Sequence record: OZ346151.1
Reading direction: 5' to 3' (one strand)
Length of the DNA: 64,000 nt
Source: a phage
Part shown: piece by piece, positions 59,197-59,830 of the stretch
Layout of the letters: each line of letters begins with the position of its first letter
Numbering within the stretch: the stretch's first letter is position 1
Notes under the pieces: model-generated
What the model saw: only the letters and a program-made list of their open reading frames with translations
Told to the model about the DNA's origin: nothing
The model's database searches: none
Program-made: the position numbers and the translations under genes

Positions 59197-59547
59197 ATGA
59201 AAGATGGGGATAAGCTGCTATATCTTAAAGTCCCCCTTGAAATACTATCTATGTCAAAAGTTTTGAATGACACAACTGGGGAGGTTGTTGTTCTTGACTT
59301 GTATGACAAGATCGTATACTGCTACCTGCACAACTGGTATAAGCTTGGAGGAAATTCACGCTTCACACCAAGCACAAGGAAAATTGCAGCAGATGTTGGG
59401 ATAAAGAAAACAAAAGCAGCAGCGTGCGTTAAAACTTTAGAATGTGCAGGAGTGGTTGAAACATCCACACAAGGGAGAGGTAAAAGATGCACATTTTCCA
59501 AAGTTTTGCCACCAGAAGAAGTTATTCGGATGTCAACAACTGGTTAG
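59197..59547 (+). CDS. small DNA-binding-like protein (possible HTH), candidate iteron-binding initiator or regulator
   Basis: 116 aa; RBS CAGGAG; segment STRKIAADVGIKKTKAAACVKTLECAGVV resembles an HTH; immediately upstream of iteron array. Confidence 0.45.
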   Translation: MKDGDKLLYLKVPLEILSMSKVLNDTTGEVVVLDLYDKIVYCYLHNWYKLGGNSRFTPSTRKIAADVGIKKTKAAACVKTLECAGVVETSTQGRGKRCTFSKVLPPEEVIRMSTTG

Positions 59548-59621
59548 ACCAGTAAAAACTTAAATATCTGTACTATAAGGATTCGTATGTTTTATGTTCG
59601 CCATGGAACGGATACTATTAA

Positions 59622-59704
59622 CTGTCCGTGATACGGACACTACTGTCCGTCACGCGGACACATCTGCCCGTAATACGGACACTAACTGTCCGTGATACGG
59701 ACAC
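59622..59704. repeat. Four tandem palindromic iterons (core GTCCGT-N3-ACGGAC), about 21-bp period
   Basis: Cores at 59624-59638, 59645-59659, 59666-59680 (variant GCCCGTAATACGGAC), 59688-59702. Confidence 0.85.
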
Positions 59705-59830
59705 ATAAAGAATATAACTAAAATAACTAAATAATAAAAAATAAAAGATCTAGTACTTATGGTACTAAGTACATATACTTAACTTATGTAGAATATACTA
59801 GATCCTAAGTACCATGTTTTAAATTTATTA
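59705..59830. other. AT-rich tract with short palindromes following the iterons (candidate DNA unwinding element)
   Basis: Long A/T run 59705-59745; TAGTAC-TTATG-GTACTA and repeated CTAAGTAC, ATATACT. Confidence 0.5.

Follow-up and report, generated by a model that had tools for sequence, protein, structure and literature searches.

Replication of phage lambda starts at ori-lambda, an array of four dyad-symmetric sites of ~17–19 bp that lie roughly two helical turns apart between the regions coding for the N- and C-terminal domains of the initiator O. The sites are bound by the winged helix-turn-helix (wHTH) domain of O, a strand-asymmetric AT-rich tract adjoins them on the side distal to the region coding for that domain, an upstream early promoter transcribes towards the origin, and the C-terminal domain of O recruits the P-type helicase loader. 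The RepA_N initiators of staphylococcal plasmids (pSK41/pTZ2162 RepA) bind iterons through a winged-helix N-domain, have a C-terminal host-specific domain, and find their iterons within or beside the rep gene. The origins of T7 and T4 consist of a promoter and an AT-rich unwinding element and are transcript-primed; they are not known to have an iteron array or a dedicated initiator protein. Here we describe a locus in a 64,000-nt stretch of phage DNA (sequence record OZ346151.1, referred to below as the window) in which the gene for a 116-aa wHTH protein, gp075 of phage rV5, is followed by four dyad-symmetric iterons and an AT-rich tract. The locus is probably where Vequintavirus phages begin DNA replication (early, theta-type), and is best read as a lambda-type iteron origin whose initiator is reduced to a stand-alone N-domain, in a virulent phage with a T7-like helicase-primase.

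Sequence identity places the window in a Vequintavirus (rV5-like) myophage of Escherichia coli: the 1.2 kb around the locus are 99.8% identical to Escherichia phage isim and match 119 phage records, every one of them a Vequintavirus myovirus. For genome-wide scans we used the complete rV5 genome (137,947 bp), put together from three fetched pieces. An initial sequence-only reading had listed four copies of GTCCGT-N3-ACGGAC at 59624, 59645, 59666 and 59688 with a period of ~21 bp. All four sites are present and the measured spacing of 21, 21 and 22 bp bears out the period, but only copies 1 and 4 are exact. Copy 2 reads GCGGAC and copy 3 GCCCGT, each one base off the proposed pattern, and the shared core is therefore best given as (c)TGTCCG-N5-CGGACA(c). 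With up to one mismatch allowed, the pattern gives 10 strand-matches against 0.23 expected, a number reached by none of 100 shuffles, and the array is the strongest tandem repeat of the window (TRF score 110–126; runner-up 42). Half-site centres are 11 bp apart and neighbouring sites two helical turns apart, the spacing expected for aligned dimers on the same helix face, as had been suggested. The array begins 75 bp past the stop codon of the 116-aa open reading frame (ORF) and thus lies outside the gene. The complete rV5 genome has a single cluster of sites, made up of the four iterons, and one isolated site with one mismatch inside a gene.

The A/T-rich DNA with short palindromes that had been noted directly after the repeats was confirmed as a tract of 19–30% GC in a genome of 43% GC. 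Positions 59711–59830 are the lowest-GC 120-bp stretch within the window, and the equivalent tract is also the lowest of the complete rV5 genome (19.2%, with the runner-up at 25%). The first 40 bp are A-rich on the plus strand, while the remainder carries interleaved short inverted repeats and five TAAGTA/TACTTA motifs (59750–59835), three of which are TAAGTAC/GTACTTA. Several AGGTACA motifs occur in divergent intergenic regions beside distant homologues of gp075 in two metagenomic contigs (L009:3140-3640 and L010:3135-3640); both kinds of motif may reflect a common recognition motif, either a promoter or a primase site, or their resemblance may be accidental. No DnaA boxes or integration host factor (IHF) consensus sites were found within 59400–60300.

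Conservation singles out the two elements. Across the genus the iterons are 96.5–100% identical and the AT-rich tract 94.7–99.2%, the lower value in each case being that for Aya, the most divergent genus member. In the same comparison of the window with Aya, the three upstream genes and gp073 are 87.7–91.2% identical and the 21 bp directly before iteron 1 only 43%. Because the iterons and the tract are more conserved than flanking coding sequences while the 21 bp upstream vary freely, what selection preserves, as judged from these alignments, is the repeats and the precise sequence of the AT-rich tract, not the whole intergenic region. Phages EdH4 and A135 have three iterons, with exactly one 21-bp unit missing, so three copies suffice for a viable phage; a change of copy number by whole 21-bp units is typical of iterons.

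The upstream protein fits the part of an iteron-binding initiator. The ORF is annotated in all relatives, and its HTH-like segment, already noted by the sequence-only reading, is identified as a wHTH by Pfam scores just under the cut-offs and by an AlphaFold2 (AF2) model. Against PHROGs, gp075 matches phrog_12838 over residues 1–116 (E = 5e-80), a family whose name, 'replication initiation protein', is annotation-based; weaker matches are to the initiator families phrog_8102, 428 and 270. Against Pfam, it scores 24.5 bits for HTH_36 (gathering cut-off 25) and 27.4 bits for DUF6945 (cut-off 28), and precomputed assignments give PF13730 to the cluster representative of gp075. There was no Pfam match to Phage_rep_O at E ≤ 1 or to RepA_N, and no match to a terminase small-subunit family in either Pfam or PHROGs. 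The AF2 model, built from an alignment of 20 family members, reaches a predicted local distance difference test (pLDDT) score of 81.6 and has three helices, a beta-hairpin wing and a short C-terminal helix, after which the protein ends; a single-sequence model (pLDDT 39) was unusable. A Foldseek search of the PDB with this model returned first the DUF6945 N-domain 4ro3, from a V. cholerae protein with no assigned function, and then the N-domains of RepA_N initiators (4pql, 5kbj, which is a Rep–iteron DNA complex, and 4pt7; E = 3e-4 to 1.5e-3, TM ~0.5), ahead of the MarR, LexA and ArsR regulators. The RepA_N proteins are thus the closest functionally characterized structures, yet gp075 shares their fold rather than their sequence membership, the PDB sequence search giving an insignificant E of ~0.8. 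Among predicted viral structures, the matches include several 'replication protein/initiator' entries and gp115 of phage phiPMW. The name 'replication initiation protein' already stands in the RefSeq entry of rV5 gp075, most GenBank records have 'putative transcriptional regulator', and the repeats appear in databases as bare "repeat_region" features. Open-literature searches for a published Vequintavirus origin, the TGTCCG-N5-CGGACA iteron or Vequintavirus transcriptomes returned nothing relevant.

The same palindrome recurs with homologous domains in other genomes. When we scanned IMG/VR for two tandem TGTCCG-N5-CGGACA sites, we found 18 loci. They belong to seven or more lineages that are unrelated and range in GC content from 40 to 70%. 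The arrays have 2–7 sites with a period of ~20–25 bp, one of them (L071) being irregular. In 17 of the 18 loci, the array is either inside the stretch of a gene that codes for a wHTH or directly 3′ of that stretch. Only L070 departs from this: its two sites lie towards the end of a 342-aa ORF that matches nothing in PHROGs or Pfam. In four loci (L045, L050, L060 and L072), which encode proteins of 363–387 aa, a mid-gene array is followed by an AT-richer patch, which is exactly the lambda O/ori layout, and L050 adjoins the gene of a single-stranded DNA-binding protein (SSB). Most array-associated proteins match HTH_36 and the PHROGs named "replication initiation" or "replication initiation O-like", and the genomic context of the larger ones is, as far as gene content tells, that of a replication initiator. 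Pairwise BLAST between gp075 and an O-like protein was insignificant and profile–profile comparison was therefore needed; with hhalign, the gp075 family aligns to the array-associated initiator domains across HTH and wing with 97.1% probability (E = 5.6e-11). Hidden Markov models (HMMs) built from the gp075 family alone match only array-adjacent ORFs and none of 3313 distant ORFs, and their matches include prophage-like loci in Treponema and Kiritimatiellae genomes. Homologous domains next to the same palindrome imply that DNA-binding domain and site travel together in several independent lineages. The small stand-alone design is found in two of these: a group of 133-aa proteins with the iterons inside the 3′ end of the gene, and the 169-kb viral contig L071, where a 120-aa wHTH gene has four iterons right past its stop codon, then an A-rich tract starting CATAA.AATATAA as in rV5, and then a GC-rich hairpin.

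Searches with gp075 itself gave a narrower set. A word-indexed protein search returned near-identical genus members only, and tblastn confined both gp075 and gp073 to the genus Vequintavirus, so that the other genera of the Vequintavirinae could not be used for synteny or covariation. Exhaustive HMMER searching added three credible distant relatives, the rest being low-complexity noise. Together with profile searches it identified as distant homologues phiPMW gp115, Henunavirus gp227 and metagenomic proteins; the phage homologues adjoin RNA ligase/polynucleotide kinase (PNK) genes, at or near a divergent transcription switch. These DUF6945/HTH_36 proteins, to which the N-domain of 4ro3 also belongs, are true sequence homologues of gp075 with a small or N-terminal wHTH, and their phage members lie near palindromic or direct repeats and AT- or purine-rich tracts. 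They differ in that the repeats have another sequence and are upstream of the gene. The phiPMW repeats are three GGACA-N3-TGTCC palindromes with a purine-rich tract behind them; the window of minimal GC skew, proposed as the origin by the authors of the phiPMW study (PMC5587285), is ~1.8 kb away. In Henunavirus, a pair of direct repeats immediately precedes the start codon. Several metagenomic relatives (P0009, P0011, P0016, P0021 and P0023) and the array-associated 133-aa wHTH protein L066:3270-3668 (minus strand) have acidic C-terminal tails, long in the metagenomic relatives and lacking in gp075, with ends such as ...DEAPF, ...DPDAPF, ...EEPF and ...LVPF, a (D/E)xPF-like pattern that resembles the C-terminal tip of bacterial SSB. 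That tip recruits replication proteins.

Compared with ori-lambda, the locus has the same four dyad-symmetric sites and spacing, the strand-asymmetric AT-rich tract on the corresponding side, the wHTH binding domain and the upstream early promoter directed at the origin, and it is tied to true O-like genes of uncultured phages that hold the identical iteron internally. The lambdoid layout proposed in the sequence-only reading is thus supported by the iterons, the AT-rich tract and the family links of the protein. Two features that define ori-lambda are missing: the array is 75 bp downstream of the gene instead of inside it, and gp075, equivalent to the N-domain alone, has no C-terminal helicase-recruiting domain. 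The iteron sequence of lambda is also a different one, sequence homology extends to the broader HTH_36-type wHTH and only indirectly to 'O-like' PHROGs, and the locus belongs to a virulent myovirus of 138 kb that encodes a T7-like replisome itself. Since the proposed origin lies outside the gene, the C-terminal domain is missing and Phage_rep_O gives no match, the locus would be lambda-ori-like in its working and not a member of the O/ori-lambda family. Like the T7 and T4 origins, it has an early promoter upstream of an AT-rich tract, here the proposed unwinding element, and rV5 encodes a T7-like helicase-primase and polymerase; it differs from them in its iterons and its proposed dedicated binding protein.

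Binding, unwinding and initiation at the locus, as we infer them, could proceed as follows. Host RNA polymerase would transcribe gp075 early from a sigma-70-type promoter, which matches 10 of 12 consensus positions in a consensus scan and corresponds in place to promoter 'P76' annotated in the rV5 RefSeq entry. Dimers of gp075 would then bind the four sites and, because half-sites are one turn and sites two turns apart, all dimers would lie on one face of the DNA. This nucleoprotein complex would bend or strain the DNA and so open the AT-rich tract, predicted to be the least stable duplex of the genome, and the gp4-like helicase-primase and T7-like DNA polymerase encoded by rV5 would load on the bubble. 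Helicases of the T7 gp4 type load on single-stranded DNA without a dedicated loader; opening of the tract may therefore be the whole task of the initiator. A loader of the lambda P type would be unnecessary, which fits a gp075 that has no C-terminal recruiting domain, and no P-like gene was found next to it in the ORF list, Pfam or PHROGs. Read-through transcription from the gp075 promoter may aid opening, as at lambda ori: the promoter/terminator scan found no terminator-like site between this promoter and the repeats, so early transcription probably enters the origin. The protein may additionally regulate transcription at the locus.

Phages of the rV5 group rank with the E. coli phages that are isolated most often, and they are used in typing, biocontrol and therapy collections. 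If correct, a defined origin and initiator would make their replication directly testable and offer an engineering handle, for example for origin-dependent plasmids, replication-defective phages or reporter constructs. It would also mean that, given a T7-type replisome, an iteron origin of the lambda type can do without a domain that recruits the helicase. The TGTCCG-N5-CGGACA site, common to homologous initiator domains of very different phages, is a ready comparative set for studying the evolution of initiator specificity and domain architecture.

Several results weigh against the locus being an origin. Both Pfam scores of gp075 are slightly under their cut-offs, the protein has no domain able to recruit a helicase, and pairwise BLAST to an O-like protein is not significant. 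Among the metagenomic homologues, an iteron search of L009 and L010 gave no clear array, and the upstream position of the Henunavirus and phiPMW repeats, in promoter regions, suits autoregulation equally well. The conservation of the exact sequence of the AT-rich tract suggests functions beyond easy melting. In bacteria, most tandem arrays of the palindrome (mainly of 20-bp period, in metagenome-assembled genomes (MAGs) of Myxococcota and Burkholderiales) have no adjacent wHTH gene. GC skew was rejected as independent evidence: the rV5 minimum, at ~66.5 kb and 1.3 kb from the locus, which is at ~65.0–65.25 kb in rV5, coincides with a divergent transcription switch, as every rV5 extreme falls on a switch of transcription direction. 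The 2013 rV5 genome paper sought the origin by skew analysis and found only the transcription switch points (PMC3606486). A repeat-rich, gene-poor region elsewhere in the window (18240–20840) could be an alternative origin.

The strongest rival, which we regard as unlikely, is that the repeats are an operator array only, bound cooperatively by gp075 as a repressor or activator with no part in replication. Its targets would be a promoter in the AT-rich tract, serving the GC-rich element beyond it and/or gp073 and the tRNA cluster, or it would block read-through from its own promoter. The older name 'putative transcriptional regulator' in many records agrees with this, as do the generic wHTH fold common to MarR, GntR and LexA-type regulators and the autoregulation-like position of the Henunavirus and phiPMW repeats, in a divergent promoter region just upstream of the gene. 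The base-by-base conservation of the AT-rich tract is promoter-like, and in the record of phage Gotham PhagePromoter places a promoter there. However, a sigma-70 promoter and terminator scan of the 660-bp intergenic region found nothing inside, and thus no such promoter overlapping or adjoining the array, which is downstream of its own gene and ~500 bp from the next. Family and structural links point to initiators instead of regulators, the iteron is found inside O-like initiator genes in replication/recombination modules (e.g. L050 beside SSB), and the adjacent tract is the extreme AT-rich point of the genome. Initiators commonly autoregulate, and regulation and initiation are therefore compatible.

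A more far-reaching form of the origin interpretation is offered only tentatively and is, in our view, improbable: that Vequintaviruses, L071 and the 133-aa proteins ('group A') represent an undescribed 'mini-initiator' origin with an N-domain-only wHTH, external iterons and AT opening for a self-loading helicase-primase, which also includes the GC-rich element at 59836–60100. This element has 54–63% GC and is conserved across, and occurs only in, the genus Vequintavirus. A coding role was rejected, since close relatives differ by frame-breaking indels (1 nt and 18 nt). The consensus structure computed from ten genus members comprises 13 helices, with one compensatory C-G to U-A change in a long-range helix and nine pairs with wobble-compatible one-sided changes, whose G-U pairs are sensible only on the plus strand. 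The single-sequence z-score is only −2.0 and the ten sequences are too similar for a firm covariation test; the element is probably structured and may form part of the origin, be it as RNA or as DNA. Within a 'mini-initiator' origin it could, for example, supply an RNA with a priming or regulatory role, or act as a duplex clamp holding the bubble edge in place. Rfam gave no match for either the repeats or this element, returning tRNAs only (window at gathering threshold; intergenic region at E ≤ 10).

It is far less likely that gp075 is a small-terminase-like protein and the repeats a recognition site of the pac/cos type. Small terminases do use N-terminal (w)HTH domains and repeated sites (lambda Nu1/cosB, SPP1 pac), and in one lineage, the L074-type contigs, a 133-aa wHTH gene is ~1.5 kb upstream of the large terminase gene. 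In rV5 the large terminase subunit is encoded ~4.3 kb downstream on the same strand, and record MG065672 begins exactly at iteron 1. Against packaging, gp075 matches no terminase family and its functional matches are all replication initiators, its gene has an early sigma-70-type promoter, and lysis genes, six or seven tRNAs and several ORFs lie between it and the terminase. The larger array-bearing proteins are O-like and belong to replication/recombination modules, and database records begin at points all over the genome. A functionless tandem duplication beside an unrelated small regulator, which slippage could easily make and with which a copy number of 3 to 4 would agree, is scarcely credible, as the spacers have diverged among copies with the dyad core kept, the array outconserves coding DNA next to 21 freely varying bp, and the same arrays recur with homologous proteins in unrelated phages.

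The features of the proposed origin and its surroundings are given in Table 1.

Table 1. Positions in the window of the features at and around the proposed replication origin
Feature	Position	Strand	Remarks
Sigma-70-like promoter	59133..59162	+	TTGACA-18-TATTTT, TG before second hexamer; upstream of wHTH gene
116-aa winged HTH protein (rV5 gp075)	59197..59547	+	Proposed iteron-binding initiator; N-terminal-domain equivalent only
Intergenic region, 660 bp	59548-60208		Between gp075 gene and gp073
Four dyad-symmetric iterons, core TGTCCG-N5-CGGACA	59619..59704	none	Spacing 21/21/22 bp
Iteron cores	59623-59639, 59644-59660, 59665-59681, 59687-59703
AT-rich tract, 131 bp	59705..59835	none	Proposed DNA-unwinding element; directly after iterons
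Conserved GC-rich non-coding element, 265 bp	59836..60100	+	Bounds AT tract
Long-range helix of GC-rich element	59842-59852 with 59975-59986
First hairpin of GC-rich element	59859-59889
DNA-metabolism genes	Leftward from ~58,100		Window orientation
Rightward cluster	Starts ~58,100		PNK-like ATPase, metallophosphatase, 116-aa protein (rV5 gp075)
gp073 to gp070, then tRNA cluster, lysis genes, terminase	Downstream of intergenic region

Among the bacterial arrays of the palindrome, L080, L091 and others in the range L079–L115 are on MAG contigs of Kofleriaceae (Myxococcota) and Burkholderiales and have a strict 20-bp period, with no recognizable wHTH initiator gene next to them; the array of L091 sits between recA-like and ComM-like genes. 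These arrays may be something else, with a different use of the palindrome.

The gene-poor region at 18240–20840 (~2.6 kb; unannotated in rV5, 104,013–106,618) is located at a convergent transcription point and a local GC-skew maximum. It contains several AAGGCAACTAT/ATAGTTGCC motifs in both orientations at 18703–18894, a perfect 18-bp inverted repeat (18752–18769 / 18886–18903), two copies of ATGCAAACGRATGGCATGGC and a short ATGTCAATT-like run, and it has no Rfam match. Possible roles for the region are terminus, pac site and second origin.

Record MG065672.1 (phage 'A141') has its position 1 at window position 59619, exactly the first iteron, and the 18 Vequintavirus records that are labelled 'Campylobacter phage' and marked UNVERIFIED are nearly identical with E. 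coli phages; the probable causes are that the assembly broke at the repeat and that hosts were mislabelled. A 99-nt tRNA-like gene (62554–62652) is reported by ARAGORN as 'tRNA-???' with a four-base anticodon (atcc), and Rfam gives it a tRNA score of 35.5 bits. Phage Gotham has it as tRNA-Lys and isim as 'tRNA-OTHER', and the rV5 RefSeq entry does not annotate it. The gene may be interrupted by an insertion or intron, or its anticodon loop may be unusual.

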